Shown: positions 1 through 59,806 of the stretch, one piece after another
How the letters are laid out: the number at the start of each line of letters is the position of its first letter
Position numbering within the stretch: position 1 is the stretch's first letter
Source: Candidatus Babeliales bacterium
Lineage (GTDB): Bacteria; Babelota; Babeliae; Babelales; JBFXEV01
Direction: 5' to 3'
DNA: 64,000 nucleotides
NCBI GenBank assembly: GCA_050179755.1
Contig: JBFXEV010000001.1
Location: forward strand, 201,994 to 265,993
The notes under the pieces: generated by a model
What the model was told of the DNA's origin: nothing
The model's input: the letters and a program-made list of their open reading frames with translations, nothing else
Databases searched by the model: none
Translations under genes and position numbers: made by a program

Positions 1-286
1 GCTCACCCCATTGCCGCCGGTGCAACTCTTGTTGTGCTCGCATGCGATCGAACTCCCCACCACGTCGCTCTTGTTCAAGCCTTTGTTGACGGTTCTGATA
101 CCAGTCATAGCATACAATGGCTAACCCCAATGCACCCGTAACACTAGCTATTATTACGGGATGTTCTTTTGCGATATTCCATATACGGCCAAAAAAGCCT
201 TGATTATTATCTTGCTCCATGCCGAAGGCAGGTTGAGCAACACACATTACAGATAAAATAAGGGTTATTTTCTTGAAAATATTCAT
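1..286 (-). CDS. Secreted hypothetical protein, 3' end beyond window edge
   Basis: Own translation MNIFKKITLILSVMCVAQPAFGMEQDNNQGFF...; GGAGG RBS upstream (reverse of 293-297); runs off the window. Confidence 0.7.
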   Translation of the reverse strand, partial: MNIFKKITLILSVMCVAQPAFGMEQDNNQGFFGRIWNIAKEHPVIIASVTGALGLAIVCYDWYQNRQQRLEQERRGGEFDRMRAQQELHRRQWGE

Positions 287-484
287 TTTAAACCTCCAGG
301 TTCTTTTAGATTATTATTTCTAATTGTATATATTTATATAAAAAAGTCAATCGGCTTTCGATTCTGGGTTAAACCATAGAGGTCTATGGGTGATCATCCC
401 CAGGTTTGCAAACCTGTAAATCAAAGGCCAGGCTCTGCAATCTTCTCATGAGGACTGCAGTAACCTGGCCAAATTATGCTCTAG

Positions 485-1288
485 TTACCCTTCAATCGAT
501 TTAGCTATATTCTGCAATTGTTCAGAGCGCTCACAAAGATACTCCATATCTTGCCAATAAGGCAATGGGCCTACAAATGGAGTAAAATCCAATTCTTGCA
601 AAGCACACAATAAAGCCACATTAGTTACCCGTGTATGCAAGAATATTCTAGAGACTGAAAACGGGAGCTTAAAAATAGCGCTCAAAAGCAGTTTATCAAT
701 GCCGCGCTCATGTGCACCCTGCTCAACACCAAACATGGCTACCTTTACCGTTCCTGATTCAAAAAGAGGCTGCACCAAAAATTGAATGATGCCCAACGTT
801 TGGCCAGTATCAGCATCTTTGGCTGTTACAAACCATTGCCTCTCATCAGGAGCAAGATACTTTGCAAAATCAGTTTCAGAAAAAAACTGTACTAATTGTG
901 CATGCAATGTCTTTTCAACCTGTTCCCAATTCACGTGCTCTACACCATCTTTAAAAAATGATACCAGCGGCTTTAAAAACATTTCTGATTCTACTGCCTC
1001 AGGATGTTTACGAGCAAACTCCAGCTCCATTGTTGCATACGTTTGCGCAAAAATTTGACTTGCTTGCCTAAATACATCATTTAACCGTTTAGTTGTTACA
1101 TCCACTTCTTCCCAAACAAGTTGTATCGGCGCTCCAAAATTATCTTTTGCTTTTAATATTCCATAACTCATTGTTTTAATACTTTCAAGATTATGCTTAG
1201 TTATTGGCATACTCCACGAATTTGCCATAACAAATAATATGCTGAGGGTAGTAACTACCCCCAAAATATTACGTTGAACATACTGCAT
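485..1288 (-). CDS. Secreted protein with C-terminal GNAT-like fold
   Basis: Signal peptide; VKVAMFGVEQGAHERGIDKLLL resembles GNAT motif A; LHTRVTN resembles motif B. Confidence 0.55.
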   Translation of the reverse strand: MQYVQRNILGVVTTLSILFVMANSWSMPITKHNLESIKTMSYGILKAKDNFGAPIQLVWEEVDVTTKRLNDVFRQASQIFAQTYATMELEFARKHPEAVESEMFLKPLVSFFKDGVEHVNWEQVEKTLHAQLVQFFSETDFAKYLAPDERQWFVTAKDADTGQTLGIIQFLVQPLFESGTVKVAMFGVEQGAHERGIDKLLLSAIFKLPFSVSRIFLHTRVTNVALLCALQELDFTPFVGPLPYWQDMEYLCERSEQLQNIAKSIEG

Positions 1289-1605
1289 TGAGCATGCCCT
1301 TTCTGAAATTCAATAAATAACTATTTTACCAAAAAAAATTTGGTATTTGATAAAAAAAGAAAACAACAGCAATTATTGTGCTGCTACCTCTAAGATAAGA
1401 TTAAAAAGTATCATAGTTACCCTGCTTTCGTGGGTAATGGGTTAAGAATAAGCTATTTTCACAATAGCAGCATTTAATATTAAAGTCAAAACCTTACAGT
1501 GTGAGCAATTTTTTAATCGCTTACGGCGCGACTTCATGCTCCATAAACTCAACAATTTTTTGAGCTGCCTGCTCTGGCAATAAACCACAAAGATTTTTTT
1601 ATTAC

Positions 1606-3162
1606 TCATTCATGAGTAAGTTCCGTTATGAGAGCAAGCGCTTCTTTTACTATTGCCGCTTTTTTTAATTGTATTGTTAGTTGAGTCTTGAGATAGTGGC
1701 CTAGCCACTTGCCAGCTTGCGCTGCCGCAAGCAATCGCACCAAAGAGTTTGTTGCAGGTATTTGCCAATAATTATCTACTTCCTTTGCTACAGTAAAAGC
1801 TGATTTCTTTGTTTTATCATGTACGCGATCAGGATCCGCCCCTTCAAGCAATAACAATCTGGCGATTTCAATAAGTTTTATTGGGTGTCGCTGATATCTA
1901 TAACTATATTCAGCCAATACGTCGAGCGGTGTTTGCCCTTCATGATTTTGTTCCAGTAAACGATTACCTTCAACAGAAAATAATTCATGCAAGTGGTCAT
2001 CATCAGTCAGCATGCCAAATTTCGCCACATGATGGAATGCATTATTACCCTGCGCATCAACACTTCCCTTAGGAAGACGCGCAAGGAGCTTGACCATGGT
2101 TCCTGACCGAGCCCAATGAATAAGATCAATTTTATAAATCCCATGTTGTATGAAAAATTGCACCAATGGAATATCATCTTCAATTAGCGCAAGTTTGCCC
2201 AAGTTAAAACTTTCAAAATTTTCATTAAAATAATTTTTGTTAATCGTAAGAACCATAGCAATAAGCACGCGTAGCTCGTGCCAGTTTGAAAACACGGGAT
2301 TAAGTTCACACAATAATAAATCAGCGGCACCTTCACCAAATTCACGTGCATCTTGCACTGCAACAATGCGCTGCCAAAAAGGATATTTTGGATGTGATCT
2401 TATTACCTCACAATTCAATACCCCCGGGCTACCTGGCAAAATAGGGCACCATTGTTCTATATATTCTTTAGTAATAACTTTGGGCAACTTAGTTTGTATA
2501 TAAGCGCTTGCATGGCATTTGCAAGACTGCACTGCCCGGGAGACCACGTGCCTACGTGGTTTTAATATATCCGCAAAGATGCATGCTCTCATACTTGCAT
2601 GGAAAATACGCTGTTCAAGATGGCCAAATCTCGGCTCATATTGATAACACGCGCCATAATCCATAAATGTTTGTTCTGCGTCATCTTCCCGAGTAACGTC
2701 TGCTCCGTACTTATAAAGCAATGTTGCCCAGGCAATTGCATGCTCAGCATCAGTTCTACCAACTTCTTGGCCCACAATATGGAGTGGCGTGCGCCCTCGC
2801 GCATCAACAGCCCCTGCTGCTGCGCCATGTTCCAAATAAAATTGTAATAATGAAGTCTGTAATTTATTACGTGCAGCTGTTCTACACACGTGATGTAACA
2901 CGGTACCATTATGAATGCCACCTGTTAATGCATAATCAGCGCCGCGTGAACGTAAAGTTTCAGCTTCTTCCTTTGTTTTTGCGGTAAAAAAATAAGGAGC
3001 TTGTAAGGCTATTGTTGTGCCATTTGGTATGTGATACTCAATGCTTTCTTGCGCATTAGGATTAAGATCCATAGCACAGAGCACCGTTGTTCTCTGTACT
3101 AACAATAAAACAATAATGATGCAATAACGCATTGTATTCCACAAGCTCACAAAAATTCTCAT
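1606..3162 (-). CDS. Secreted ankyrin-repeat protein
   Basis: Ankyrin motifs GTVLHHV, DARGRTPLHIV, DAQGNNAFHHV, GQTPLDVL, LLLEGADP; signal peptide ending CAMD. Confidence 0.85.
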   Translation of the reverse strand: MRIFVSLWNTMRYCIIIVLLLVQRTTVLCAMDLNPNAQESIEYHIPNGTTIALQAPYFFTAKTKEEAETLRSRGADYALTGGIHNGTVLHHVCRTAARNKLQTSLLQFYLEHGAAAGAVDARGRTPLHIVGQEVGRTDAEHAIAWATLLYKYGADVTREDDAEQTFMDYGACYQYEPRFGHLEQRIFHASMRACIFADILKPRRHVVSRAVQSCKCHASAYIQTKLPKVITKEYIEQWCPILPGSPGVLNCEVIRSHPKYPFWQRIVAVQDAREFGEGAADLLLCELNPVFSNWHELRVLIAMVLTINKNYFNENFESFNLGKLALIEDDIPLVQFFIQHGIYKIDLIHWARSGTMVKLLARLPKGSVDAQGNNAFHHVAKFGMLTDDDHLHELFSVEGNRLLEQNHEGQTPLDVLAEYSYRYQRHPIKLIEIARLLLLEGADPDRVHDKTKKSAFTVAKEVDNYWQIPATNSLVRLLAAAQAGKWLGHYLKTQLTIQLKKAAIVKEALALITELTHE

Positions 3163-5789: not shown

Positions 5790-6197
5790 ATGAAATTTGC
5801 AATTGCTTTTCTTGGCCTTTATATACTTGCAAGCTCAACAAGTTCTGCTATGGATATACAGGAATTGCATGAATGTAGGCTGCCCAGTGCAGAAGATTTG
5901 AAGAAACGCCTTCAAAAATTTAAACCGCTGATTGAAAACACAGATCTTATCGCCTCTGTTGCCGGCAAGAAATTAGTTGATTGTAACGTGCCATGGGCTG
6001 TAGATTTGGCAATTTGCGATTATCTTGCACATCTTAAGAAACAACAGCATAATAACACGGAAGTAAAACTCCATTTTGAACAATTAGAGTCACAAAGACC
6101 CATGCTTATTTGCTTATTGCTCCAAGATGCTCCCGAGGCAATTGCGATACTCAAAAGAGCACACGTATTTAAACGAAGAAAAGTCAATTACCATTGA
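5790..6197 (+). CDS. Secreted hypothetical protein, paralog family A
   Basis: Signal peptide ...SSAMD; RLPSAEDLKKRL and MLICLLLQDAPEA shared with 6253 and 12533 ORFs. Confidence 0.7.
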   Translation: MKFAIAFLGLYILASSTSSAMDIQELHECRLPSAEDLKKRLQKFKPLIENTDLIASVAGKKLVDCNVPWAVDLAICDYLAHLKKQQHNNTEVKLHFEQLESQRPMLICLLLQDAPEAIAILKRAHVFKRRKVNYH

Positions 6198-6252: not shown

Positions 6253-6642
6253 ATGAATATTAGAATATATAGTGCGTTATTTTTTATTTGGTTAAACTTT
6301 GCATGCCACGCTATGGACAACAAGCCCCTTGCTGAAGCAGATAAAAAAGTGGTTTTACGTATGCCAAATAAGGCCACCTTAAAAGCACGATTAAAAAAAG
6401 AAGAATTACAGCATATGCTTGAAAAAACTAAAGTTCTTGCGTACTTTAGCCAAAAAGAATTTGCTGTCATCGATTTTTCCGCCCAAGTAGCAACTCTTCT
6501 TCACGAATATGCAACAGATCTTATAAAAGCCGGTTCGGATCTACAAGTAGTCCAAATTCACTTAAAATTTGATAAACCTCGTTTACTAGCAGTTTTACTT
6601 AAAGATTATCCGCAAGTACTGGGTTCACTAGAAGTTGAATAA
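6253..6642 (+). CDS. Secreted hypothetical protein, paralog family A
   Basis: Signal peptide ...CHAMD; RMPNKATLKARL, LLAVLLKDYPQV. Confidence 0.7.
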   Translation: MNIRIYSALFFIWLNFACHAMDNKPLAEADKKVVLRMPNKATLKARLKKEELQHMLEKTKVLAYFSQKEFAVIDFSAQVATLLHEYATDLIKAGSDLQVVQIHLKFDKPRLLAVLLKDYPQVLGSLEVE

Positions 6643-7214: not shown

Positions 7215-7232
7215 CAATTGTTAATGAAGACT

Positions 7233-7597: not shown

Positions 7598-7631
7598 AGA
7601 AATATTAGATCTTCATTATAGATTTTTATTA

Positions 7632-9575: not shown

Positions 9576-9577
9576 CT

Positions 9578-12532: not shown

Positions 12533-12931
12533 ATGACCTTAAAAGCAATTCTATTAATCACTCTATTAAGCAGCACATACTGCACTGCAATGGATGGCCT
12601 GTTTCAAATGCCTAGTCGACCAGTGCTTTATAAACGATTAACAAATGGTTCAACATGCCTTCATGAAGGTGACATAGAAGCATTTAATTTAGCAGGAGTT
12701 CTTGGAGGTAAAAAACTTTTATTCATGGAGATAAATACCCGTGTAACAGGTGCAGTTAAACGTCATTGTGCATTTCTTGTACGGGAATTGCGAGAAGTCA
12801 GCTCAAGGGAATCGATAGAAAAATGCATCCCTGATTGGGAAAAAACGATGCTTATTACTATTTTACAAGATTATGAAGAAGCATTGGATGAAATAAAAAA
12901 ACAGTCAGCAATAGAAGCACCAATAAAATAG
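12533..12931 (+). CDS. Secreted hypothetical protein, paralog family A
   Basis: ...CTAMD; QMPSRPVLYKRL, MLITILQDYEEA; GGAGA RBS. Confidence 0.7.
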   Translation: MTLKAILLITLLSSTYCTAMDGLFQMPSRPVLYKRLTNGSTCLHEGDIEAFNLAGVLGGKKLLFMEINTRVTGAVKRHCAFLVRELREVSSRESIEKCIPDWEKTMLITILQDYEEALDEIKKQSAIEAPIK

Positions 12932-16897: not shown

Positions 16898-18406
16898 TTA
16901 ATACCATGTAATCCACGGTTTTTCTTGAGCTTTAGATCTTTCATATTTTTCTTGCCATTCACGTTCCCTTGCTGCCTGCTCTTCTTTTTTCTTTCTTGCA
17001 TCTTCTATTGCATTTTTTTCTTGTAATGTATGGATTGATTTCACGCGATCAACATACGTTCTTATAACACTTTTACGCAAATTCGCATCAGTGTTTTCTC
17101 TCCAAACTTGCAAAAGCTGTTCAAGATTAAGATTAAACGCCTTTGCCATCCAACATATAAAAGCATCATCGGTCGCTTGTTGCTTCTCACTTGGGCACAT
17201 CGGTTTTTTTCTTTTAAGTATACATAGTGTAAGATGTTCTTTAAGCACTAAGCGCAAGAGCATCAACTCAAAACGCGGTTCATTATATTTTTCCCACACT
17301 TTAGTAGCGTGATCGTCACAAGCAACAACCAATTGATTTTTGCACGGCTTTATTGCAATAGATCGCACAATGGCCAGATGCTCAAGGCGCGCAACTTCTT
17401 TATTAGTATGCATATCAAAAACAAATACGTTACTATGATTTGCAACAAATAAACGGGAACCTCTTTGATTAAATAAAAGTATAGAAACCGCATTAAGATA
17501 GTGACATCTTAAAACAGATTGTTTTTTGAGTGTTTGATCTTTGTGCCATATCGTAACAGTTCCATTGTCACCCCCTGTAGCATAGACACTCTCATATGGA
17601 TGAGCTGCCACTGCAGTTATTTTTTTAACATTAGGATCTGTCGCGTAGGTAATGATTCCACGATCTCCTTCATACTCATGTAATTCTAACTTATTATCAG
17701 CAACTGCCAGAAAATCTGTACCCTTTTGGCAAAACGCAACTTGCGAACTTTTCACATCTGAATGATGCGTTGGAATACCGCCCTCTAAAGGCCAAATTTT
17801 CATTCGAGGGATAACGCCTGCCTCACCCTTATGTGGCCATGTACAAATATGTGTACCTTGTTGATTAATCGCTAACACGCGAGGCCCACTCTGATCTTTC
17901 ACAATCTTTACTGTTTTACCTGTATAATCCACTCTTTCTAATGTTTGATTATCAAGTGAAGCAATCATAAAAGGCTGTGTGGGTGAAGCCACAAGGCCGG
18001 TAAGTGTACAGCCATATTGCTTTGTAACAGTTTTTTTGCCCCGTTGATCATATAAACGCAATGCATTATCTGTGCACGCTGCGGCAAGCAAAGCGCCATC
18101 TGAACTATAGCAAACTACCTGTGCAGGAGCGTCTGTTTGGCAATCAATTTCTTTGCTATACCACCACTCTTTGCCCTTCATAACCTCTTGAACCCATTTC
18201 TTTTTAAGATCATTAAGACCTTGGCTCGCACATACATTTGAAAGACCAAAATAATTATATAGCGATTGTGTCTGTTTTTTTGTTGTTTGAATTACTGGTG
18301 AATCTTCTTTCTGTGATGTATGTTCACTTTGCATACCAACAACAGGCGCTGGATAAATCACAGACAACATCACAAGTAAGTTTCTTCTAAAAAGAGAATG
18401 TAGCAT
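16898..18406 (-). CDS. Secreted WD40-repeat protein
   Basis: WD repeats (ATGGDNGTVTIW, VACDDHATKVW); shares family N- and C-terminal domains with 20213-24399 genes. Confidence 0.8.
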   Translation of the reverse strand: MLHSLFRRNLLVMLSVIYPAPVVGMQSEHTSQKEDSPVIQTTKKQTQSLYNYFGLSNVCASQGLNDLKKKWVQEVMKGKEWWYSKEIDCQTDAPAQVVCYSSDGALLAAACTDNALRLYDQRGKKTVTKQYGCTLTGLVASPTQPFMIASLDNQTLERVDYTGKTVKIVKDQSGPRVLAINQQGTHICTWPHKGEAGVIPRMKIWPLEGGIPTHHSDVKSSQVAFCQKGTDFLAVADNKLELHEYEGDRGIITYATDPNVKKITAVAAHPYESVYATGGDNGTVTIWHKDQTLKKQSVLRCHYLNAVSILLFNQRGSRLFVANHSNVFVFDMHTNKEVARLEHLAIVRSIAIKPCKNQLVVACDDHATKVWEKYNEPRFELMLLRLVLKEHLTLCILKRKKPMCPSEKQQATDDAFICWMAKAFNLNLEQLLQVWRENTDANLRKSVIRTYVDRVKSIHTLQEKNAIEDARKKKEEQAAREREWQEKYERSKAQEKPWITWY

Positions 18407-20212: not shown

Positions 20213-21529
20213 TTACATTATGTGACATTTTTTTGTTCTTTTCTTACTATTAGCCATTTGATTAATGCGATTTACAAGTGACTCTACTAAACTTGTTTGC
20301 CATTCATTTGGCATAGTTAACCAGACTTTTTGCAATTCGGCATGATCAAGTTTCAACGTTTGGGCAATAAACACAAGTAATTCGGCTGCTTGAGCAGTAG
20401 TAACTTGCATCTTCTTTCTTCTTAGCATGCAGACTTTACTAAAATCACTCAGAACAACAAATAGCATTGTCTGCTCCAACGTTGGCTGATGCCGTTCATA
20501 TGTAAATACATATTGCTCCGAACAAGTTGCCATCCTATTATTTGATGCAAACGCTACAGCATTAACAAAGTCATAATGCTGTAATCTTGTACTTTTTTCA
20601 ATACTATCTAAATTCCATAAATATGCTCCATAATCCCATGATGCTATTGCCACTATATTCTCTTGTGGATGAAAGGCAATGGCGTTAGCCATATTTCCAT
20701 GATGTAGTTCGCGTAATTTATTACCTCCTATATCCCATAAATATACCCGGTAATCCCCTTCCGATGTTGCTAACATATCCCCTTGAGGATTAAATGCTAC
20801 AGCCCTAAGTACATCACCGTGTTGTAATCTTTTTAATTCCACTCCCTCACAATCCCACAAACGAGCTGTAAAATCCCATGAACCTGTAGCCACCATAGTA
20901 CATTGTGGATGAAATGCTACTGCAGTAACCCGATTATTATGATGCAATAAACGATATTTATGATTTTGTAAATTCCATAAAGCTGCTGTGTGATCATATG
21001 ATGCTGTTGCTACCATATTGCCTTGTGGATGAAATGCTACTGCGGTAATCATCTCTTTGCCATGTGAAAATCTACTTAATTCAGAACCATCTAACGCCAA
21101 TAAGCGTATTTTATTCTCCGATGCTGTAGCAAGCATAGTGCCATTTGGATGAAACGCCACCGCATTCACTTCAATATTATTGTTTAATTTTACTACTTTA
21201 TTATTTGCAAAATTTAATAAAAATGCCGCGTGACAGGTTGCCATAGCAAGCATAGTACCTCGCGGATTATATGCTATATCTTTAACATAACCATCTACAT
21301 CTATTGTATGACTTTTACACCACATTTTGCCAAAATTATTACGGGCATCTATATGTTGTACAATCAAACTTTTAACATCTCTAGACGCATGTTCAAAACA
21401 ATCAGCAAGATTAAAATACTGGTACAGCGATTTTGTTTTTTGAACCAAGGCTTGTTCCATGACAAAAACAGGCTGTACGCTGAGAATTTGAATAAATACC
21501 AATACAAAAAGTAAGTTACTTTTTATCAT
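20213..21529 (-). CDS. Secreted WD40-repeat protein
   Basis: About 7 canonical repeats (VAFHPQG..VATASYDHTAALWN). Confidence 0.92.
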   Translation of the reverse strand: MIKSNLLFVLVFIQILSVQPVFVMEQALVQKTKSLYQYFNLADCFEHASRDVKSLIVQHIDARNNFGKMWCKSHTIDVDGYVKDIAYNPRGTMLAMATCHAAFLLNFANNKVVKLNNNIEVNAVAFHPNGTMLATASENKIRLLALDGSELSRFSHGKEMITAVAFHPQGNMVATASYDHTAALWNLQNHKYRLLHHNNRVTAVAFHPQCTMVATGSWDFTARLWDCEGVELKRLQHGDVLRAVAFNPQGDMLATSEGDYRVYLWDIGGNKLRELHHGNMANAIAFHPQENIVAIASWDYGAYLWNLDSIEKSTRLQHYDFVNAVAFASNNRMATCSEQYVFTYERHQPTLEQTMLFVVLSDFSKVCMLRRKKMQVTTAQAAELLVFIAQTLKLDHAELQKVWLTMPNEWQTSLVESLVNRINQMANSKKRTKKCHIM

Positions 21530-22916
21530 GAGCTATATTGCTTGCTCGGTATAAAAGAGTATTTACAATACTTGTTTGCAACTTCTCTGGCATTGACTCC
21601 CAGGTTGCTTTCAATTCATCTTCTTTAAGATTAAATCGTTCAGCCATCCAAGGAACAAAATCGTCTTTGGTGGTACAGGCAACCTCTGGATCAATACATA
21701 AAACCCTACATCCTACTAAAAATTCTTGAAGCCTTCTGCGCAATAACACTTGTAGCAATGTGGGATTTTGATATTGCTTCCATACAACAGCTGCACTCTC
21801 CCTACCCGGCAAAACAATTGACTTATTACCTCCAACGGCAACAAATCGAGCTCCATCTGGGGCAAACGCAACTTCTTTAACTATGCTATGCTGATCTAAT
21901 TGCAACAATCTATTGCCTTCAAGGTCTCTTAACTGAATAAAACCCAATTGTGAAGCAACTGCCAAAAGATGACCTTTAGGATGAAATTTAATGTCATTAA
22001 CTTCAGCCAAACCTTCAGGATATAACTTTCCAACAAGTGAGCAGCGCTTGTGCCGCAAAGTGGGCAAAGAATCATCATGAACATCAAAGAGCGTGATATC
22101 TCCATTAAAACAAGTTGTTGCAAGCGATTTTCCATGAGGTGCAAATGCAACTGCCGTAAGTTCATTAGTATGCGCGAGCGTACCAATCTTTTTCCATGCA
22201 GCATTCCAGAGCATAAGCCTAGTGCCTTGCGCTAATGCAAACAAAGAACCTTCAGGATGAAACGTCATGCCCAGAATTTCTCTTCTTTGAAAATATGGAC
22301 GTGCGGTAGTAAGCTGCGCAATGTCTTGCTCTTTATCAAAATCAATAACTGTTACGGAGTCTTTCTCCCTGGCACCAAAAAGCGCATGACGAATGTTTGA
22401 AGTTACGACCACCACGCTGTTATTACATGGATGCACTAATATAGACCTTATATCCTCGGCAAAATCTCTGATATGATATCTCAATTGATTATGCCAGCTT
22501 ACAATGCTAATTCTCTTGCCAATAGCGTCAGCCTTTATTGAATGATTTAAAGCAGTCTTATGCATTTCGCCTGGAACCGAGACAGAACTACTTCCCTTCT
22601 TTTTTGAAACTATTTCTTTAAGCGTGGAAAACTGCCATGCACGCATTATACAATCTTCAGCGCATGTTAAAAGAAGATCTTGAGTGGGATCAGGGTGCGC
22701 TATAGCAGCGCCCACAAAGCAACCATGCGGCAAAACACCTTCCGAATACCACCACCCAGCAGGGCCTACAATATGCTGCGCAAGCAATCTTCTCATATCG
22801 CCCTGCGCCTGAAAAGCCGTTGGCACATTGTAATGCTGATAAAGAGATTGAGGCGCCATGCCAAAAATAGCGTGGAGGTAGAAGCAAAAAATAAATAATA
22901 AAAAGCGTTGACTCAT
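21516..22916 (-). CDS. Secreted WD40-repeat protein
   Basis: WD repeats; close paralog of 22930-24399. Confidence 0.85.
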   Translation of the reverse strand: MSQRFLLFIFCFYLHAIFGMAPQSLYQHYNVPTAFQAQGDMRRLLAQHIVGPAGWWYSEGVLPHGCFVGAAIAHPDPTQDLLLTCAEDCIMRAWQFSTLKEIVSKKKGSSSVSVPGEMHKTALNHSIKADAIGKRISIVSWHNQLRYHIRDFAEDIRSILVHPCNNSVVVVTSNIRHALFGAREKDSVTVIDFDKEQDIAQLTTARPYFQRREILGMTFHPEGSLFALAQGTRLMLWNAAWKKIGTLAHTNELTAVAFAPHGKSLATTCFNGDITLFDVHDDSLPTLRHKRCSLVGKLYPEGLAEVNDIKFHPKGHLLAVASQLGFIQLRDLEGNRLLQLDQHSIVKEVAFAPDGARFVAVGGNKSIVLPGRESAAVVWKQYQNPTLLQVLLRRRLQEFLVGCRVLCIDPEVACTTKDDFVPWMAERFNLKEDELKATWESMPEKLQTSIVNTLLYRASNIAHDKK

Positions 22917-22929: not shown

Positions 22930-24399
22930 TCATTCTAGAGTTTGCTTTTTGAGAGCCTGTTCCTTTGCTCTATACTGTGCATGCACTACTTGTATCTTTT
23001 GCGCGCGAGATATCAACGTTTCAAAAATACTCTGACGCAAATCTTGCGGCATTGACTCCCAAGTCGCTTTCAATTCATCTTCTTTTAGATTAAATCGTTC
23101 AGCCATCCAAGGAACAAAATCGTCTTTGGTGGTACAGGCAACCTCTGGATCAATACATAAAACCCTACATCCTACTAAAAATTCTTGAAGCCTTCTGCGC
23201 AATAACACTTGTAGCAATGTGGGATTTTGATATTGCTTCCATACAACAGCTGCATTATCTTTGTTTTTTAACACTGTTGAGTTATTCCCACCCACCGCAA
23301 CAAGACCTGTACCCCCAGAAAGAAATGTAAGTTCTTTAACTATGGCGTGCTGAGATATTTGAACTAATCTAGCGCCTACTACATCTTTAAGCTGTATAAA
23401 TCCCTGTTGTGAAGCTATTGCCAAAAGTTTACCATTTGGATGAAATTTAATATCATTAATTTCTGGTGTGCCCTGAGAATGTAGCCTAGAATCCAACGAA
23501 CAACGCCAATGCCGTATGCTTGGCAACTCCATGCCATGCAGATCAAAAAGCCCTACAGCCCCGTTATGGCAAGCAGTCGCAAGCATTGTGCCTTGCCCAT
23601 TAAATGCCACAGCAGATATTGGACTATCGTGCGCTACTACGCCTACTTTTTTCCATGCATCATTCCATAATGCCAACCTAGTATGCTGCCCCAAGGCAAA
23701 CAAGCAACCTTCGGGATGCAGCGCCATAGCTCGGACATTTCTTTGCACAGGATAATAATGAGTACCAAATTCCACCAGTGTTTTTTTTGTCTCTAAATCA
23801 ACAACTTTTACAAAATCCTTGCGTTTAAATTGCCCATTATGAGGAATAGTATCAACAGATGACACAATGAGCAATTCTTTTTTGAATGGATGTGGTAACG
23901 CTGACCGTATATTTATATCAGATCCTATTGTTATTTCTGCTTTGTTAACAGTCGCCACAACGCACCGATTTAAAGCATTTGCACAAATGGAAAAATTTCT
24001 ATTAAGAGTTACTGTATTCATCTCTCCTTCAAGAGGAACCACAGTCGCTTTTTTATAGTTTGAAATTTGTGTATTCTCTTTCAAATCCCAACCGCGCATA
24101 TTGCCATCTTCCGCTGCAGTAAATACCCAAGGCAAAGTCGGGTGTGCTGCTACAGAATAAACAAAACAACCGTGTGGCAGCTCTACATCTGGGTACCACC
24201 AGCCCGCAGGCCCTACAATATACTGCGCAAGAGATTTGGTCATATCTCTCTGTACCTGAAAAGCCGTTGGCACATTGTAATGTTCAAACAAAGATTGCGG
24301 AGCTTTGTCCATTGCAACTACCGGGCACGCACAAACAATTAAAAGAACGATGGCAAGACATGAAGTAATGGCTAACTTGGCTGTTACTAATAAACTCAT
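22930..24399 (-). CDS. Secreted WD40-repeat protein
   Basis: WD repeats; signal peptide ...VVAMD. Confidence 0.85.
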   Translation of the reverse strand: MSLLVTAKLAITSCLAIVLLIVCACPVVAMDKAPQSLFEHYNVPTAFQVQRDMTKSLAQYIVGPAGWWYPDVELPHGCFVYSVAAHPTLPWVFTAAEDGNMRGWDLKENTQISNYKKATVVPLEGEMNTVTLNRNFSICANALNRCVVATVNKAEITIGSDINIRSALPHPFKKELLIVSSVDTIPHNGQFKRKDFVKVVDLETKKTLVEFGTHYYPVQRNVRAMALHPEGCLFALGQHTRLALWNDAWKKVGVVAHDSPISAVAFNGQGTMLATACHNGAVGLFDLHGMELPSIRHWRCSLDSRLHSQGTPEINDIKFHPNGKLLAIASQQGFIQLKDVVGARLVQISQHAIVKELTFLSGGTGLVAVGGNNSTVLKNKDNAAVVWKQYQNPTLLQVLLRRRLQEFLVGCRVLCIDPEVACTTKDDFVPWMAERFNLKEDELKATWESMPQDLRQSIFETLISRAQKIQVVHAQYRAKEQALKKQTLE

Positions 24400-33459: not shown

Positions 33460-33978
33460 ATGAAAAAAATAATAAATTTATTTATTCTATTCATTGTTAC
33501 ATTAACGAGTGTTAAATCACAAGCCATGTATCCAACTCCGCCAAGGCCTTATTCTACAGGCTCACATGCTATGCACCAAACTCTATGCGCATTCCAGGCA
33601 ATAATTTCTAATCAATCTACACAACCCATTTTAGTCTCACCACAAGGCAAAGCAGGAACAATTTTATTTCTTGGTCAGTGCGCCGCACCCATAGAAGTTT
33701 CGTCAAAAGGACTGATTAATACTGGTCAAATACTTATTTCTTCAGCAAAAGGTGTAAACCAATTATGCTCATTGACACACCTTCCCAGTAAAGAAGTAAT
33801 AGTTTTTTTATCGTTGGCAAGAGCGAACGACTTTGTGCTAATGGAAAGCATCGCATGTTTATGGCATAAGGCACTATCTTTCTTTATAAAAGTTGATGAT
33901 ACTGGGCTGGCCACCTTTGTTGATCGCGAAGGCGTACAAGAAACTGATGAAAAACTGGCATTACTATTGGAAAAATAA
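33460..33978 (+). CDS. Secreted hypothetical protein, paralog family C
   Basis: ...SQAMY; ISNQSTQPILVSP; ATFVDREGVQETDEKLALLL. Confidence 0.7.
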   Translation: MKKIINLFILFIVTLTSVKSQAMYPTPPRPYSTGSHAMHQTLCAFQAIISNQSTQPILVSPQGKAGTILFLGQCAAPIEVSSKGLINTGQILISSAKGVNQLCSLTHLPSKEVIVFLSLARANDFVLMESIACLWHKALSFFIKVDDTGLATFVDREGVQETDEKLALLLEK

Positions 33979-34038: not shown

Positions 34039-34923
34039 ATGTTCGGCTTCATAAAAGAAAAACTCACTAAAGTATTCACCCAAGTCACACAAAAATTTAA
34101 CACCCTATTTTCAAGAAAATCGATTGACCAAGAAGCCCTTACCGAACTTGAAAAAATATTAATCCAAGCAGATGCTGGCGTACTCACCACCAGAAACATT
34201 TTAAAACAAGTCACCCTTGAGTGGCAACAAGGCCGCATACAAGAAGGTGCTGACTTGCATCAAGCAGTCAAAGAGCATTTGCTTGCGCAACTTCCTGAAC
34301 ACAAGCAAACCGATTGCCAAGTATATCTGCTTGTTGGTATCAACGGCAGCGGCAAAACCACGAGCGCTGCCAAATTGGCCTCAAAATTAAAAGATGAAGG
34401 TAAACGAGTACTCTTGGTCGCTGGCGATACGTTCCGTGCAGCGGCAGTGGAGCAACTTGCCGTTTGGGCCAAAAAAATTGATGTGCCGTTAATGGTTGGT
34501 GCACCAGAGCAAGATCCTGCCTCAGTTATTTTTTCAGGATGCACGCGCTTTAAACAAGAGGGCTTTGATGCACTTATTATCGACACTGCAGGCAGATTGC
34601 AAACAAAAGTAAATTTAATGAAAGAACTTGAAAAAATTAAAAAAGTAATAGAAAAACAATTGCCAGATCACACCATATGCACGTTACTCACGGTCGATGC
34701 TATGTTGGGGCAAAACTCTTTTGACCAAGCCAAATTGTTTCATGAAAGCACCAAGCTTGATGGCTTAGTGCTTACCAAAATGGATGGCACGGGCAAAGGC
34801 GGCATAGTGTTTGCTATAACCAAGGAACTTTCAGTCCCTGTGCTCTATATTTCATATGGGGAACAACTTGACCAACTCAAGCCATTTGATAAACAAGAAT
34901 ATATTGAGCAATTACTTGGCTGA
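34039..34923 (+). CDS. ftsY: SRP receptor FtsY
   Basis: GINGSGKTT, DTFRAAA, DTAGR, TKMDGTGKGG. Confidence 0.97.
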   Translation: MFGFIKEKLTKVFTQVTQKFNTLFSRKSIDQEALTELEKILIQADAGVLTTRNILKQVTLEWQQGRIQEGADLHQAVKEHLLAQLPEHKQTDCQVYLLVGINGSGKTTSAAKLASKLKDEGKRVLLVAGDTFRAAAVEQLAVWAKKIDVPLMVGAPEQDPASVIFSGCTRFKQEGFDALIIDTAGRLQTKVNLMKELEKIKKVIEKQLPDHTICTLLTVDAMLGQNSFDQAKLFHESTKLDGLVLTKMDGTGKGGIVFAITKELSVPVLYISYGEQLDQLKPFDKQEYIEQLLG

Positions 34924-35487
34924 TACTGCTTTTGCGTTCAATACTGTTTTTTCTTTAAACATCATTTGGCTTGTACTCAATGATTTAAATGCCACAAGTT
35001 TGGCAGCATTGCTTTTGCTGCGCTTAACGTGCGCAGCAAATTGATCTAATCGCAGTGCTGCAATGTTTTGTTTAACTTCCAAAGTCTTTGCTTCATCAGC
35101 CTCGACTGCATACAGGTTTTCAAAACCCGGCATTTTTGCACACAAAGCTTGAACCTTATCAATCAAGACTGGCTCTTTAAAACTTAAAACATATATTCCC
35201 AAATTAGGAACCGGATTTAATGATCTTGCCTTACATATTGAACACAAACTTGATAATGCTTGTTCATGCTTTGCAGCTTGTATCCCAGAAATTGGTCGTA
35301 CTAAATTTGTCCCTGTCACATAACCTGGTCGAACTTGTAGTAGAACACATGATACCATTGTATTATCAGCAGAAGTTGTAGCAGCCTCACGCGTCCCATC
35401 TGTAACTTGAACCCTCTCTTGCTCCATACATTTAATCTGCATACTTGCACCAAGTGCAAGCACTCCTAAAAACTTGTTAATTTGCAT
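34912..35487 (-). CDS. Secreted hypothetical protein
   Basis: Signal peptide ...IKCMEQ; AAGGTG RBS. Confidence 0.65.
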   Translation of the reverse strand: MQINKFLGVLALGASMQIKCMEQERVQVTDGTREAATTSADNTMVSCVLLQVRPGYVTGTNLVRPISGIQAAKHEQALSSLCSICKARSLNPVPNLGIYVLSFKEPVLIDKVQALCAKMPGFENLYAVEADEAKTLEVKQNIAALRLDQFAAHVKRSKSNAAKLVAFKSLSTSQMMFKEKTVLNAKAVSAK

Positions 35488-43285: not shown

Positions 43286-44431
43286 ATGAATATTAAAAAT
43301 ACATTACTTATCTGTGCCCTTGTGTGCGCACCCCAAGCATACGCTATGAAAGCTAAAATGCTAGTTCGCATGGCGGCGCCGGTCACTGCTGCTGTACTCT
43401 CAGAAAGAATTGGCAAGAGCCTATTTGAAAAACCTTTAATTAAATCTGAATACCCTACAATGGGAATGAGTCTGTTTCCAATTTTTGATATACTCTCAAA
43501 AAAAGCTAAACCTATTGAAGAAGCTGCACCAGTGCTTGCGCGCGAGCATGTTTCCATTGAAAAACTTAATTACGGGGATTTACCCGCAATTCTGGAAGCT
43601 TTAAAGCATGCAACAGAAGATGATAAATGCGTGGTCGCACAAGAAGTTGCAGATCATCTTAAACGTTACAAAACAACAGCACTCATAAAAATGTTACAAT
43701 GTTCTACTAAAAAACCACATCGCAAGCTCGTGAATGCTGTATGTAAAAATATAACATCATTTAGAACAGCAGATATCATCGAGATCCTTAATGCTGATGC
43801 AAACTGCCAAACTCATAAATTACTTGCTCAAGCGATAGGGCAACATGCAACATATTTCACTACCTATTCATTCTGCGGTATACAGCTTTATGCTACAAAC
43901 GAATATCGCGGTGAATATCTGAGCATGCTCTCTCGATTACAACCTGAATATCAAAGGCAAGCGTTAACCCCTATCTTGCATTCACTTGGTGAGTATGACG
44001 TTCTGCGCCTACTGCGCATAGTAAAACAAGAAGATAATAAACAATTAATTCTTGAAGCATTCAATACTATAACTACTATTAATCTTTCAGCGTACAATGT
44101 ACGCGAGCTTGATCAACTTTTTAAATTAACTCAATCAGGCAATCAAAAAGTGGTAGCACAGGCCGTTGCAGCCAATATTGACGCATATAATGGCTGGCAT
44201 TTTTATAGCATATTTAAATATTGTACGCGAGAAAGTAAAGCCATTATTATTGCCGCACTCATGAAAAATTTTGAAACAAAAGCCAAAAGCTATGATAATT
44301 ATACGTTAGAACTCATTAAAGCAGAAAGCGAGCAACCTCAACTTGAACTTATAGAAACGTACACCAAACCAACCTATGTACCCGTGCCCGGCGCAAAATT
44401 TACCCTGCATACGGTATACAATAAGCAGTAA
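43286..44431 (+). CDS. Secreted helical-repeat hypothetical protein
   Basis: Signal peptide ...AYAMK; recurring helical units (VVAQEVA, LLAQAIG, VVAQAVA). Confidence 0.7.
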   Translation: MNIKNTLLICALVCAPQAYAMKAKMLVRMAAPVTAAVLSERIGKSLFEKPLIKSEYPTMGMSLFPIFDILSKKAKPIEEAAPVLAREHVSIEKLNYGDLPAILEALKHATEDDKCVVAQEVADHLKRYKTTALIKMLQCSTKKPHRKLVNAVCKNITSFRTADIIEILNADANCQTHKLLAQAIGQHATYFTTYSFCGIQLYATNEYRGEYLSMLSRLQPEYQRQALTPILHSLGEYDVLRLLRIVKQEDNKQLILEAFNTITTINLSAYNVRELDQLFKLTQSGNQKVVAQAVAANIDAYNGWHFYSIFKYCTRESKAIIIAALMKNFETKAKSYDNYTLELIKAESEQPQLELIETYTKPTYVPVPGAKFTLHTVYNKQ

Positions 44432-48501: not shown

Positions 48502-49881
48502 ATGAAACGGTATTTTTTAATCTCTAGCTGCCTAACTTTAATGCCAAATTTTTGCTTTGCTATGGAGCAAAAACCTCTGATAGAACTTACAAGCATGCAC
48601 CAGCAAGCATATCCTGCTCAACGCGATCTACTTTGGGATTTTGCAAAAATAGGCCATCTCATGCGCACAGCGCCTAAAGATCTATGCATTACAGGCGCAA
48701 GTAAAGAAGGTAAAACCGAAGCTTCTAAAGCAAAACTGCAACAAGCTTTTTTAAGCATACTTGGCTCAGTGCATGTAACTGCTCAAAATGACGATACACG
48801 CGTTAAACTTGATCTTACGCAACTTGACGCATTTTGCACACTCGTGCAACAACTAAGAAAAGATGCAAAAGCTGAGCAGCATGCTTGCCTTGATGAGCAA
48901 CTTGCAACGCTTGAGCAAACACCGCCAGAAAAAATATTCATTCGAGGACTTCCTTACCAAAAAAGAGAATTACAAATTGATATAGCTTCACGCTTGTGCA
49001 CGCTACCGAAAGCCATCGCCATTGATAAAAATGGCGTAGTTACTCTTGAAGGTCCATTAATAGATGCATTTGTATATAATGCTGAAGGTTTAATCTTACA
49101 AGATAAACGCCGAGCACTAACCAAAACGGAACAAATCATTGATAACTTTGAGGCTCTTGATAAAGTTTTAGATGGTATGCCAATGCCAGAATGGCCATTG
49201 GTAGAAGCTTGCCAGCCACACTATCATGAAGCATATATGTTGTTCTATCTGAGCAAGGGATGTTCGGTGACTACTTGGGGGCCAGATGGACTTACTCCAC
49301 CCTTAATTGCTCTTGCACATGCTGCAGAACTTCAACCATCACAACGCGCAAAGGCAAAGTTTATAGCATTATTAAAAGCAGGTGCTGACCCTAATCGAAA
49401 AATTCATGACCAAGGCTCTCCGCTACATTTTCTCAAAAAAGCTGATACCGATTCACGCAAAAAAAAGTATCCAAATTCCATACGTATAGGTATTGAACTT
49501 CTTGAAGCAGCAATAGATCCTGCAAAAAGAAATAATATGCCGCTCAATGAATATCTTGAATGTATGGAAAAAAGAGATGACCCAATAGACGAAAACCCAG
49601 AACAAAAATCTACTGAACCACAAATAGCCGAACTTATGAAAATACGCACTGCAACAAAAAAATATTGTGAAGAGGTGGAAAAGCATGTAAAAAGCGCAGC
49701 TGAATCACCGGATCGCTGGAAACAGCGTGTGCCAACACTATATGAACAGCAGTTGCAACGCTTACTTACAGAAATTCGCAAATTAGATGATCAGCTAAAC
49801 AAGATAGATCCCACTGGTGTAAGAAATACCATTGAATTTATAAATCGTTGGGGAGCTTTCATTGAGAGCAATGAAAAATAG
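48502..49881 (+). CDS. Secreted protein with ankyrin-like region, paralog family E
   Basis: ...CFAMEQ; LLKAGADPN..GSPLH; N-domain LLWDFAKIGHL. Confidence 0.7.
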   Translation: MKRYFLISSCLTLMPNFCFAMEQKPLIELTSMHQQAYPAQRDLLWDFAKIGHLMRTAPKDLCITGASKEGKTEASKAKLQQAFLSILGSVHVTAQNDDTRVKLDLTQLDAFCTLVQQLRKDAKAEQHACLDEQLATLEQTPPEKIFIRGLPYQKRELQIDIASRLCTLPKAIAIDKNGVVTLEGPLIDAFVYNAEGLILQDKRRALTKTEQIIDNFEALDKVLDGMPMPEWPLVEACQPHYHEAYMLFYLSKGCSVTTWGPDGLTPPLIALAHAAELQPSQRAKAKFIALLKAGADPNRKIHDQGSPLHFLKKADTDSRKKKYPNSIRIGIELLEAAIDPAKRNNMPLNEYLECMEKRDDPIDENPEQKSTEPQIAELMKIRTATKKYCEEVEKHVKSAAESPDRWKQRVPTLYEQQLQRLLTEIRKLDDQLNKIDPTGVRNTIEFINRWGAFIESNEK

Positions 49882-49896: not shown

Positions 49897-50508
49897 ATGC
49901 ATTATTCTAAATTATTATTTTTTATTGTTTCATGCACCACAGCACATGCTCTCTGCATGGATCCGACTCCGCCAATCTGCCTGCAGGCACAGGGGCTATA
50001 TCGTGATATTCCAGACCACGCCATAGCTCCAACGGAGCAAAGGCGGGTGGATAAAGAAAGCAAAGAGCTAAGCTTAAAATGGGCGTTTGCCAAAATAAGT
50101 CATCTGCAAAATGCTGCAGCACAAGAAGTACAATTAATCGGTGTTTCTAAAGAACTGCAAACAACCCAAACAAAAGCTGGTATACAAGATGCATTGTTGC
50201 AAGCGATAAATGCTGTAGATCTCAGGCAAACACCGTTCCCGCAAGACCCGTGCCACCCGCACGTGTGCATTTCACTTGAAGCACTCAAACCACTAGCGGC
50301 TGTAATAACTAAATTACAAAAAACCGAAGCAGAACTTCAACGGCGCAAACTGCAAAAAGATTTCGAACAAAGATTTTGGGTTTCTATTTATGGGCTATTA
50401 GAAATGTATGGCCCTGCTCGCGCACAAGCGTTTTACGATCAATTGGAATCAGATAAAACAATCCAAAAATGTGGTTTAAAAATTCCTGTATACAGATACT
50501 CTTATTAA
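49897..50508 (+). CDS. Secreted hypothetical protein, paralog family E
   Basis: ...ALCMD; LKWAFAKISHL, LIGVSKE..TKAGIQDALL. Confidence 0.65.
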   Translation: MHYSKLLFFIVSCTTAHALCMDPTPPICLQAQGLYRDIPDHAIAPTEQRRVDKESKELSLKWAFAKISHLQNAAAQEVQLIGVSKELQTTQTKAGIQDALLQAINAVDLRQTPFPQDPCHPHVCISLEALKPLAAVITKLQKTEAELQRRKLQKDFEQRFWVSIYGLLEMYGPARAQAFYDQLESDKTIQKCGLKIPVYRYSY

Positions 50509-50547: not shown

Positions 50548-51000
50548 TTAGGGGTTATTACGAATACCAAATTCGCTAATCAACACACCAAGCGGATACG
50601 GAACATATGCTCTTACTAGTACTGAAAAACAATTGCCCCAAAACGTACGCCGATTTTCAATATTCAACATTTTATCGGTCCATTGTGGCAATTTATAGAA
50701 TAAATATATTGTTAAAAGGCTCTGTAGCCATTTTGTAAGCTTTTTGTCCGATGCATCTATATCTGTGCGTTTGTAAAAATCTTTTGATGCATCATGTGCA
50801 AGATTTAGCCCAAGTAGCAACGCATAATTAGTTACCAGATGTGCGCTATAATATTTTAGGCCTGAAACTTCTTGCTTTTCTAGATTAGATACTTCATTTT
50901 GACCACTTTTTTCCTCACCCATAGGCAGTGTATCTTGCTCCATGCAATACTGCCGTGCAGGCATAAGCATCGCGAGCATTAAAAAAATTGTTTTATACAT
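50548..51000 (-). CDS. Secreted or membrane hypothetical protein
   Basis: AAGG RBS; signal peptide ...QYCMEQ. Confidence 0.6.
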   Translation of the reverse strand: MYKTIFLMLAMLMPARQYCMEQDTLPMGEEKSGQNEVSNLEKQEVSGLKYYSAHLVTNYALLLGLNLAHDASKDFYKRTDIDASDKKLTKWLQSLLTIYLFYKLPQWTDKMLNIENRRTFWGNCFSVLVRAYVPYPLGVLISEFGIRNNP

Positions 51001-58339: not shown

Positions 58340-58437
58340 ACTATCTTCCTTTCTATTATCACTAATATTGCATTTGGCAAATAGCACACGCTACACTTAA
58401 AACATATCTTATTCATTATTTTAAAAAAAGGATTCTC

Positions 58438-58986
58438 ATGAAACAAAATTTAAAAGAATATAAAGTGGCTATTCTCGTGGCTCCAGGTTTTGAAGAATCA
58501 GAAATGACAAAGCCACGCCAAGTACTTGATGACGCGGGTGCAAAAACAATGCTCATTTCACCAGAATCAAAATCAGTATACTCGTGGTCCACTAATGATT
58601 GGTCAAAAAGCTATACGGTAGATTTGCAGCTTGATATGGCAAATCCCGGTGATTATGATGCATTGTTATTACCGGGCGGCGTGATAAACCCAGATAAATT
58701 ACGGTTAAATAAAAATGCCATCGACTTCATTGCACGTTTTGGAGAAATGGATAAACCAATTGCTGCTATTTGCCACGGCCCATGGACACTCATTGATGCG
58801 GGTTTAGTAAATGGCAAAACATTAACATCTTGGCCATCAATACGCATTGATCTAGAAAATGCCGGTGCCAAATGGGTAGATAAAGAAGTAGTGATAGACG
58901 GCAAACTGGTGACCAGCCGTAAACCAGAAGATATTCCTTTTTTTAATGAAGCTATGCTTAAAGTATTTACACAGAACAGAGAGTAA
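58438..58986 (+). CDS. pfpI: PfpI/DJ-1 family protein
   Basis: GFEESE, LPGGVINPDKLR, AICHGP, TSRKP. Confidence 0.93.
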   Translation: MKQNLKEYKVAILVAPGFEESEMTKPRQVLDDAGAKTMLISPESKSVYSWSTNDWSKSYTVDLQLDMANPGDYDALLLPGGVINPDKLRLNKNAIDFIARFGEMDKPIAAICHGPWTLIDAGLVNGKTLTSWPSIRIDLENAGAKWVDKEVVIDGKLVTSRKPEDIPFFNEAMLKVFTQNRE

Positions 58987-58993
58987 GTAACTC

Positions 58994-59806
58994 ATGCAAA
59001 AATTAACAAAGATACTCATAATTCATTTTCTGTTAGCACAACCACTCATGCATGCGATGGATACGTTAGAAAATGAATTAAAATTCCTACACAACAGACT
59101 TACTTCTCTAAGAAAAGCATTCACTCCAATAGCACAAACAATCAAGCCCGAACCTTTACCACAAGCTGAGCCTAAATTTAAAAAATTTAACGCACTTGGC
59201 GAACGCATCTTACCCAATGGCAAAAAGATTATTGTAGGAATTGGCGATGTTGAAAAAGTAGAAAATGTAGATGCTGTAATAAATGCTGCAAATAAGAATT
59301 TACAATTTGGCAGTGGCGTTGCAGGGGCAATCGCTGCAGCATTAGGTGCAGAAGGAGTTAAACAGGTATACGCAGAAATCAATGCAAAGTATACAACGCC
59401 AGTTAACGTGGGTTCGGCGACCCCAACATCAGTACCAGCAAATACTCTTCTTGCACAACGTGGTTTTAAATACATTATTCACGCAGTAGGCCCAGATTGT
59501 AGAGACCAAGAACAATCAAAAAACTGGCAAATGCTATTGGCAAGCGCCTATCGCAATGCTCTTACTGAAGCTGCAAAGCTTAACCTTAAAACTATAACAG
59601 TGCCAGCATTAAGCATTGGCGTATTCCAATGTGATTATCAAACAGCAATCACTATCATGATGGGGTCTATAACACAAGCGTTATTACAACCTTCATCGCT
59701 AGAAGAAGTGCTCTTGGTAGTTTGGTCAGGTGGCCAAAATAATACTGCTACGGCGCAAAATTGGCTTGCTGCACTTGATAAGGCTATTAGGATCGCAACC
59801 CTATAA
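58994..59806 (+). CDS. Secreted Macro-domain (MacroD-like) ADP-ribose hydrolase
   Basis: GD, VINAAN, GSGVAGAI, IIHAVGP, PALSIGVF; signal peptide ...MHAMD. Confidence 0.9.
   Translation: MQKLTKILIIHFLLAQPLMHAMDTLENELKFLHNRLTSLRKAFTPIAQTIKPEPLPQAEPKFKKFNALGERILPNGKKIIVGIGDVEKVENVDAVINAANKNLQFGSGVAGAIAAALGAEGVKQVYAEINAKYTTPVNVGSATPTSVPANTLLAQRGFKYIIHAVGPDCRDQEQSKNWQMLLASAYRNALTEAAKLNLKTITVPALSIGVFQCDYQTAITIMMGSITQALLQPSSLEEVLLVVWSGGQNNTATAQNWLAALDKAIRIATL

Follow-up and report, generated by a model that had tools for sequence, protein, structure and literature searches.

In Bacteroidetes, Gln follows the signal peptidase I site of most exported proteins (the Q-rule) and protects them from aminopeptidases (PMC5837995, PMC10653852), and in Plasmodium, export is conferred by mature N termini that are made by signal peptidase (PMC10653839). 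For the Dependentiae, an ankyrin secretome, in which most ankyrin proteins have signal peptides, and a type II secretion system with two secretins have been described (PMC4378268, PMC6561590, PMC4776705), as far as the accessible parts of these papers go. Here, we analysed a stretch of 64,000 nucleotides (the window) from Candidatus Babeliales bacterium, a member of the Dependentiae (contig JBFXEV010000001.1, positions 201,994 to 265,993), in which a reading made from the sequence alone had claimed that some 20 unrelated exported proteins share a Met, mostly followed by Asp, Glu or Gln, directly after the signal peptide. Analysis of the whole genome confirmed a strong and class-specific Met-Asp/Glu rule at sites where cleavage is predicted.

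The genome (G000) is one contig of 1.525 Mb with 1,396 genes, as called by our own script, and belongs to a phylum that is represented in the genome set by 261 genomes, one order and 21 families. Cleavage sites were predicted with two models of our own, a rule model and a segment model, both built or trained on G000 itself; neither scores position +1, and the segment model leaves +2 unscored as well. With the rule model, Met was predicted at +1 in 163 of 535 proteins, compared to a background of 2% (binomial p ~1e-139), and the segment model gave 194 of 567 against the same background, with Gln in 33 of 567. A lack of enrichment over background had been named beforehand as a possible refutation, and the enrichment was indeed found. 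A loose rule that accepts any Met site with a posterior of at least 0.05 put 233 of 606 proteins into the Met class, with Leu (86), Gln (67), Ala (64) and Asp (33) among the other residues at +1; relaxing the rule to allow Thr, Pro, Asn or Val at -1 adds 21 proteins. Met accounted for 5 to 9% of the residues at positions 19 to 23 in 628 proteins with a hydrophobic N terminus and for 1 to 3% in 724 others. The signal peptides of the Met class are ordinary. As is typical of Sec/signal peptidase I substrates, a positive n-region precedes a hydrophobic h-region, positions -3 and -1 are small and the length falls between 15 and 30 residues, with Ala (58%), Gly (18%), Cys (11%) or Ser (11%) at -1, Leu, Ala, Val, Thr, Ile, Ser or Cys at -3 in 93% (Arg in none) and lengths of 15 to 28 residues (most 18 to 23, mode 20 to 22). 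G000 encodes two S26 signal peptidases. Met-class genes are found all along the chromosome, and a single expanded paralogue family was ruled out, the mature parts forming 139 clusters, 121 of which are singletons.

Position +2 of the Met class is taken by Asp (33%), Glu (25%), Lys (9%), Gln (8%) or Asn (5%); Asp or Glu stands there in 135 of the 233 proteins and Asp, Glu, Gln or Asn in 165. Small residues were found in 15 of 233, compared to a background of 38% and to 120 of the 317 non-Met, non-lipoprotein signal proteins, whose +2 is near background. Bulky hydrophobic residues were likewise rare (18/233 versus a background of 26%), and Pro was almost absent after the Met. The same picture was obtained after removal of redundancy (69 Asp/Glu, 8 small and 8 hydrophobic residues in 123 independent clusters). 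The bias is bound to the register, since a Met farther downstream of the site was followed by Asp or Glu in only 12% of 217 cases.

The rule separates classes of exported proteins. Class lists (ankyrin, WD40, envelope, enzyme) were compiled by us with Pfam scans of 546 entries at thresholds of 1e-6, 1e-9 and 1e-12; Met-class ankyrin and WD40 proteins beyond the first scan batch were classed by other means, including our own WD40 profile. Among the signal-bearing proteins of G000, +1 Met was present in 50 of 64 ankyrin and 17 of 20 WD40 proteins, compared to 4 of 34 envelope proteins (two of them doubtful calls) and 4 of 97 enzymes (67/84 versus 8/131; odds ratio 61, p = 3e-30). The remaining Met proteins are mostly orphans, without a Pfam match in 115 of 125. 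Met is lacking in a deubiquitinase, in 12 of the 64 ankyrin proteins and in many exported enzymes. This deubiquitinase is a secreted ubiquitin C-terminal hydrolase and has an Ala start, as do four of six sequences of its family; one incomplete record has Met-Gln, as judged by eye. The proposal of a lineage-restricted N terminus with a strong bias towards exported proteins of eukaryote-like or orphan type is thus supported; as a marker of host-targeted proteins, the motif is shown to be incomplete by the Ala-start deubiquitinase, the 12 ankyrin proteins and the few envelope-type proteins with Met.

Ubiquitin C-terminal hydrolase (PF00443) matches were present in 23 of 61 Babeliales genomes, with at most 10 per genome, and in 0 of 14 control genomes. 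A cluster of nine or ten ankyrin genes at 1396453-1408000 of G000 (L097-L098) lacks signal peptides and has native Met-Gln, Met-Lys or Met-Glu starts, and no in-frame hidden leader was found upstream of these genes. Signal peptides, but in no case +1 Met, are present on the glycosyltransferases, methyltransferases and UDP-glucose dehydrogenases that make up large islands (L043-L045, L059). Signal-like leaders were also found on enzymes of cytoplasmic type, namely DNA polymerase I, GAPDH, GlmU, pyruvate phosphate dikinase, glutamine synthetase, ATP-dependent ligase, Ham1, HIT, adenosine deaminase and SurE (loci include 591579 [L056], 988505 [L076], 95070 [L032], 1116929 [L083], 419919 [L047] and 1003806 [L077] of G000). 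None has +1 Met, most have a strong ribosome-binding site, and many lack a second copy detectable by blast. Several have an inner Met at the start of the domain, and Shine-Dalgarno (SD)-like words precede 10 of 150 inner ATGs, versus 98 of 2767 in the background (p = 0.04). These may be dual-start genes that yield a cytoplasmic and an exported form.

Relatives were sampled as 20-kb stretches, which gives small samples per family. +1 Met was predicted in 12 of 33 signal proteins of the closest relatives and, by family, in 12/25 (f2), 7/16 (f9), 6/12 (f14) and 5/19 (f21). It was scarce in f5 (3/27), f19 (1/10) and f12 (1/6), and none was seen in the samples from f3 (0/8), f7 (0/8), f8 (0/13), f15 (0/6), f17 (0/15), f18 (0/11), f20 (0/5), f10 (0/5), f11 (0/2) and f4 (0/1). 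Pooled outside f1, Met was the commonest top +1 residue (41/292). Regions of three further genomes were chosen for ankyrin richness and searched with our own ankyrin profile. In G007, 30 of 42 ankyrin proteins start with Met, mainly Met-Glu; the 29 of G061 have Ala (11), Ser (8) or Met (3), usually followed by Gln or Glu, and the 71 of G122 have Ala (19), Met (8) and many X-Pro-Ala/Met starts. The motif is shared by several other Babeliales families; the ankyrin proteins of G061 and G122 mostly start otherwise.

Homologue pairing with the closest relatives covered ~100 kb of their DNA; the start class was mostly kept, and Met was retained between homologues of 24 to 73% identity. In a quick tree of a phosphatase/nuclease family, the clade around the query has 15 members, of which 10 could be scored and all 10 have Met (five were unscored), at 50 to 67% identity and with diverged leaders; elsewhere in the family, the +1 residue changes many times. 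A Bacteroidota-like clade of this family has Gln at +1 in 10 of 22 rows (two Met labels there look false), which matches the Q-rule and thus serves as a positive control for the site model. Homologues of the Macro-domain protein of the window have Met-Asn or Leu-Glu starts. Outgroups among other symbionts of protists gave little: an ankyrin search of plasmids returned only unrelated hosts among the best 40 of 312 records, one Holosporales plasmid had a single signal-bearing open reading frame (ORF) by eye, without Met, and a secretin-based metagenome scan found nothing. A profile of 108 leader-plus-Met fragments, which proved too short, gave one irrelevant match in 1.84 billion proteins, and an ESM Atlas query with residues 1-40 of one orphan gave no usable feature match. 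For many leaders, the best reading places Pro at -1 (A-L-P, I-H-P, A-W-P or I-T-P before Met/Ala; window 30280, G122 loci L208-L214, G007 loci); either the Babeliales signal peptidase would tolerate Pro or an X-Pro dipeptide would be trimmed later. A Babeliales-type nucleotide transporter (window 13496-14878) has 44 to 49% identical copies in records labelled Saccharimonadales, Alteromonas and Epsilonproteobacteria (L011, L020, L023), which are possibly mislabelled assemblies.

The sequence-only reading had invoked an unidentified secretion route, and this part of it did not hold. Two long secretins are encoded in tandem at 498-505 kb of G000, and two tandem type II secretins were found in 13 of 13 Babeliales genomes searched, a set that does not include G061 and G122. 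Two copies of gspD are reported for all TM6 genomes (PMC4776705), and type II is reported to be the only secretion system of Babela (PMC4378268). G000 also has three prepilin-like genes, as found by pattern. The Met class is probably exported by Sec plus the type II system of the phylum; that this route is exclusive rests on PMC4378268, types III, IV and VI not having been searched here. A dedicated signal peptidase for the motif found no support: signal peptidase I copy numbers (1 to 3 matches) did not track the motif by family, although most of the genomes searched were others than those in which the motif had been sampled. Two short ORFs at window 36515-37524 resemble PilM/PilN-type assembly genes by eye, distant from the secretin locus.

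What would the rule be good for? We give about even chances to the reading that Met-Asp/Glu is a host-stable new N terminus that escapes eukaryotic N-degron ligases. The substrates would be ordinary Sec/signal peptidase I cargo, with selection acting on residues 1 and 2 of the mature protein, and cleavage past the usual small residues at -3 and -1 is predicted to expose Met-Asp/Glu. The proteins would then leave through the type II system, and their ankyrin/WD40 content points to the protist cytosol as destination. There, N termini newly made by proteases are normally recognised by N-degron ubiquitin ligases. A Met with an acidic or amide residue behind it is spared by methionine aminopeptidase (MetAP), binds the ligases poorly and resembles the start of a native NatB-type protein of the host, and the rule would most likely render the effectors stable. 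Other Babeliales lineages may arrive at the same result with Ala/Ser or X-Pro-Ala. In human cells, Met-Asp and Met-Glu starts are stabilising, and a Met-Glu peptide binds UBR4/KCMF1/UBR2 poorly, unlike Met-Ile, Met-Leu, Met-Tyr or Met-Phe (PMC10611716); MetAP takes off Met before small residues and can thereby create degrons (bioRxiv 10.1101/2024.10.03.616566). Indeed, +2 of the Met class follows the NatB-type, MetAP-resistant pattern (165 of 233 Asp/Glu/Gln/Asn, 15 small). Since MetAP and aminopeptidase P of G000 have no signal peptide and are thus not exported, a pattern shaped by MetAP points to a cytosol. Starts were then grouped as stable (Met; Ala/Ser/Gly/Thr/Val; X-Pro), in part after the same two papers. 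Predicted destabilising starts were rarer on ankyrin/WD40 proteins than on other exported proteins in four of four genomes, significantly so in three: 14/105 versus 216/460 in G000 (p = 3e-11), 11/71 versus 10/18 in G122 (p = 0.001), 4/29 versus 21/47 in G061 (p = 0.006) and 3/7 for the other proteins versus 11/42 in G007 (p = 0.39). The deubiquitinase family must work on host ubiquitin, and its Ala/Met starts favour host stability as well.

A number of points weigh against the host-stability reading. Ala, the cheap default at +1, would be stable as well, and the escape from degrons does not require a narrowing to Met-Asp/Glu as strict as that of G000 and G007; the Ala/Ser starts of G061 and G122 may be an inherited default among paralogues. 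The Pfam-verified non-Met ankyrin proteins of G000 start with Ala, Ser, Gly, Thr or Val in 6 of 12 cases, versus 26 of 80 enzymes (no statistical test was applied), and Met-Lys is tolerated at +1/+2 (21/233). Paralogues are not independent, and after similar leaders were collapsed, predicted destabilising starts remained in 10/43, 3/17 and 9/29; in G007, the 11 of 42 ankyrin proteins with such a start stand against the reading in themselves. Met is also carried by a DD-carboxypeptidase-like protein, an S41 protease and a thioredoxin. The N-degron rules derive from human and yeast cells and may not be those of the host. Finally, NatB acts mainly cotranslationally, and acetylation of delivered proteins is therefore doubtful.

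The tightness is better explained by a linear sorting signal: once the leader is cleaved, the type II machinery or a step that crosses the vacuole would read Met-Asp/Glu and so part exported effectors from proteins kept in the periplasm, as in Plasmodium PEXEL. We regard this as possible, if doubtful, and propose equally tentatively that such an export tag for type II or a vacuole translocon, which would be a bacterial equivalent of the PEXEL N terminus and a short linear signal of type II substrates, comes in lineage dialects (Met-acidic, Ala/Ser-Gln, X-Pro-Ala) that co-evolve with the machine. The class split is very sharp, the motif is narrower than stability alone needs, Met is kept in all scoreable members of the phosphatase/nuclease clade while their leaders diverge, and the two conserved secretins could handle two classes of cargo. 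Apart from the Plasmodium precedent (PMC10653839), a +1 Phe left by signal cleavage directs plastid import (bioRxiv 10.64898/2026.03.27.714854). A sorting signal is, however, at odds with the secreted deubiquitinase and the 12 ankyrin proteins that lack Met, with repeated switches of the residue inside single families, with signal peptidase I copy numbers unlinked to the motif, and with the ankyrin proteins of G061 and G122, which mostly lack Met although secretins are conserved order-wide (these two genomes being outside the 13 searched). Moreover, in the prevailing view, the type II system recognises its substrates in folded form. A device that works on the bacterial side, by resistance of Met-acidic starts to periplasmic or vacuolar aminopeptidases or by more efficient cleavage or translocation and without host mimicry, has the Q-rule as precedent (PMC10653852), and G000 exports numerous peptidases (M3, M16, M49, C11, S41). 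We consider it improbable: the Q-rule is not compartment specific (PMC5837995), yet resident envelope proteins mostly lack Met here, and the avoidance of small residues at +2 fits MetAP, which is not exported.

Two further explanations would take the Met for a start codon, past or present. In a by-product of gene birth, without current function, leaders would have been fused before start codons that were already there, or a single cassette of a leader with a terminal ATG would have been shuffled among genes. Some non-homologous genes do have near-identical leaders, and the signal-less ankyrin cluster natively starts with Met-Gln, Met-Lys or Met-Glu. Even so, this origin is very improbable, because the 233 genes have 206 leader clusters with a mean identity of 14%, native position 2 is Lys, Ser, Ala or Asn with Asp in 2% and Glu in 5% (33% and 25% in the Met class), and Met is kept between homologues; relic GTG/TTG starts were not in excess (5 of 60 +1 Val/Leu codons). 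Near-identical leaders stand before non-homologous mature regions at window 1-286 and L038:6368-8775 and at L067:16005 and L068:4035-4802, which suggests leader shuffling between effector genes. The other explanation, which had also been named as a possible refutation, is that translation begins at the inner ATG, be it as the genuine bacterial start or as a Kozak start of eukaryotic type, and leaves the leaders out. The ATG at +1 has G at -3 in 76% and G at +4 in 64%, and this Kozak-like GCN ATG G context results from the codons of Ala-Met-Asp/Glu. SD-like words precede 73% of the first starts and 1.7% of the +1 ATGs (n = 233), the first start outscores the inner ATG in 224 of 233 genes, and a further count gave SD-like words at 2 of 233 +1 ATGs, rarer than at random inner ATGs (98/2767). 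Ala, Gly and Val all give G at +4, yet they occupy +2 in 14 of 233 proteins where 21% is expected; the constraint thus acts on the amino acid, contrary to a Kozak requirement. The Met is not a start codon, and we reject this explanation with near certainty.

In the window, all 20 motifs claimed were found in the translations of the genes named. They are listed with strand, residues around the site and the segment-model posterior for the Met site (p).

1..286 (-), orphan, exported, 354 amino acids (aa), runs off the window: AFG/MEQ, Met codon 220-218, top site, p = 0.95, no Pfam match
485..1288 (-), exported, 267 aa: SWS/MP, Met codon 1210, p = 0.03, no Pfam match at 1e-6, doubtful
1606..3132 (-), ankyrin protein (Pfam Ank): LCA/MD, Met codon 3072, p = 0.23, top site one residue earlier
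5790..6197 (+), orphan: SSA/MD, Met codon 5850, p = 0.92
6253..6642 (+), orphan: CHA/MD, Met codon 6313, p = 1.00
12533..12931 (+), orphan: CTA/MD, Met codon 12590, Met top site; homologue of closest relative (37.5% identity) also Met-Asp
16898..18406 (-), WD40 protein (Pfam WD40): VVG/MQ, Met codon 18334, p = 0.71, low signal score
19708..20034 (+), orphan: SFS/MH, Met codon 19780, p = 0.74
20213..21529 (-), WD40 protein (Pfam WD40): VFV/ME, Met codon 21460, p = 0.36
21516..22916 (-), WD40 protein (own profile): IFG/MA, Met codon 22859, p = 0.09
22930..24399 (-), WD40 protein (own profile): VVA/MD, Met codon 24312, p = 0.00 (long leader), top site of the rule model
30280..31056 (+), exported, 258 aa: IHP/MK (Pro at -1), Met codon 30343, p = 0.01, no Pfam match at 1e-9
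32963..33430 (+), orphan: SQA/MD, Met codon 33029, p = 0.97
33460..33978 (+), paralogue of the preceding gene by homology: SQA/MY, Met codon 33526, p = 0.68
34912..35487 (-), orphan: IKC/ME, Met codon 35427, p = 0.96
43286..44431 (+), orphan: AYA/MK, Met codon 43346, p = 0.99
48502..49881 (+), exported, 459 aa: CFA/ME, Met codon 48562, p = 0.99, no Pfam match at 1e-9
49897..50508 (+), orphan: ALC/MD, Met codon 49957, p = 0.07
50548..51000 (-), orphan: QYC/ME, Met codon 50943, p = 0.01
58994..59806 (+), Macro-domain protein (Pfam Macro): MHA/MD, Met codon 59057, p = 0.98

The segment model ranked the Met site first in 12 of the 20, as an alternative in four (LCA/MD, VFV/ME, IFG/MA, ALC/MD) and gave it weak support in four (SWS/MP, IHP/MK, QYC/ME, VVA/MD); SWS/MP is the most doubtful, because Pro hardly ever comes after the Met. 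The motif is absent, as had been stated, from the two ABC binding proteins, the FKBP (a lipoprotein), the PLD and the 776-aa toxin-like protein; a different PLD, outside the window in the same genome, has Met-Asp. The labels ankyrin, WD40 and Macro were borne out by Pfam or our own WD40 profile, while "2H" and "GNAT-like" found no Pfam match at the thresholds used; the two Pfam-confirmed GNATs of the window lack the motif. At 6670-12276, the 776-aa exported protein, for which no Pfam match was found, has behind it orphan duplicates of its C-terminal portion and some five ORFs of 124 to 135 aa that resemble one another, an arrangement that suggests a polymorphic toxin and its array of immunity genes. 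A leucine-rich amphipathic helix is seen at the mature N or C terminus of about 10 unrelated exported proteins (Macro, deubiquitinase, orphans; e.g., window 58994-59806 and 30280-31056, L059:6727-8157, L068:14993-19578) and is not significant beyond the seeds. Two tRNA genes lie at 51743-51815 and 51979-52053.

The rule provides a marker of two residues, readable from the genome, for ~230 candidate host-directed proteins, mostly orphans; the phylum, whose members are parasites of protists, is widespread and has received little study. If host stability is the true reading, Sec-exported effectors evolve cleavage sites that satisfy the N-degron rules of the host, and the constraint should apply to any intracellular microbe that delivers protease-matured proteins. 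If sorting is true, the long-open question of type II substrate choice becomes testable by single-residue changes. Our literature search, with subscription papers and recent Dependentiae reviews outside its coverage, found no account of a Met-acidic rule. The accessible parts of the Dependentiae secretome papers (PMC6561590, PMC4378268, PMC4776705) describe signal peptides and not the residue after cleavage; in these texts, "methionine" does not occur in PMC4378268 and PMC4776705 nor "motif" in PMC6561590, and the supplements of PMC4378268 hold nothing relevant to a post-cleavage Met.

With the described Dependentiae secretome, the Met class shares cargo and machinery. To NatB-type N termini and the Arg/N-degron pathway (PMC10611716) it is related by Met plus an acidic or amide residue and by the avoidance of Met-hydrophobic and Met-small starts; here, such N termini would be made by proteolysis in the bacterial envelope instead of by initiation, and may be acetylated or stable. 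PEXEL proteins have xE/Q/D as consensus of the mature N terminus, and the acidic or amide second residue is thus common to both. In Plasmodium, as here, effectors of a parasite are distinguished by the N terminus left after leader cleavage (PMC10653839), but the Babeliales proteins are bacterial, have an ordinary signal peptidase I site and no RxL motif, start with Met, and have a role in export that is only proposed. Like the Q-rule (PMC5837995, PMC10653852), the Met-Asp/Glu rule fixes a lineage-specific residue directly past the signal peptidase I site, with a stabilising role that was shown in Bacteroidetes and would apply here. The Q-rule, however, uses Gln instead of Met plus an acidic +2, and Gln in most substrates is not what is seen here (33/567); it applies to most substrates whatever their compartment, and a sorting role was shown to be absent, whereas the Met rule concerns ~35 to 40% of the substrates and is confined to effector-like cargo. 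No enzyme that would modify the Met was identified, no search aimed at one having been made. The Met-Asp/Glu rule resembles the Q-rule or the PEXEL N terminus in its working and belongs to neither.

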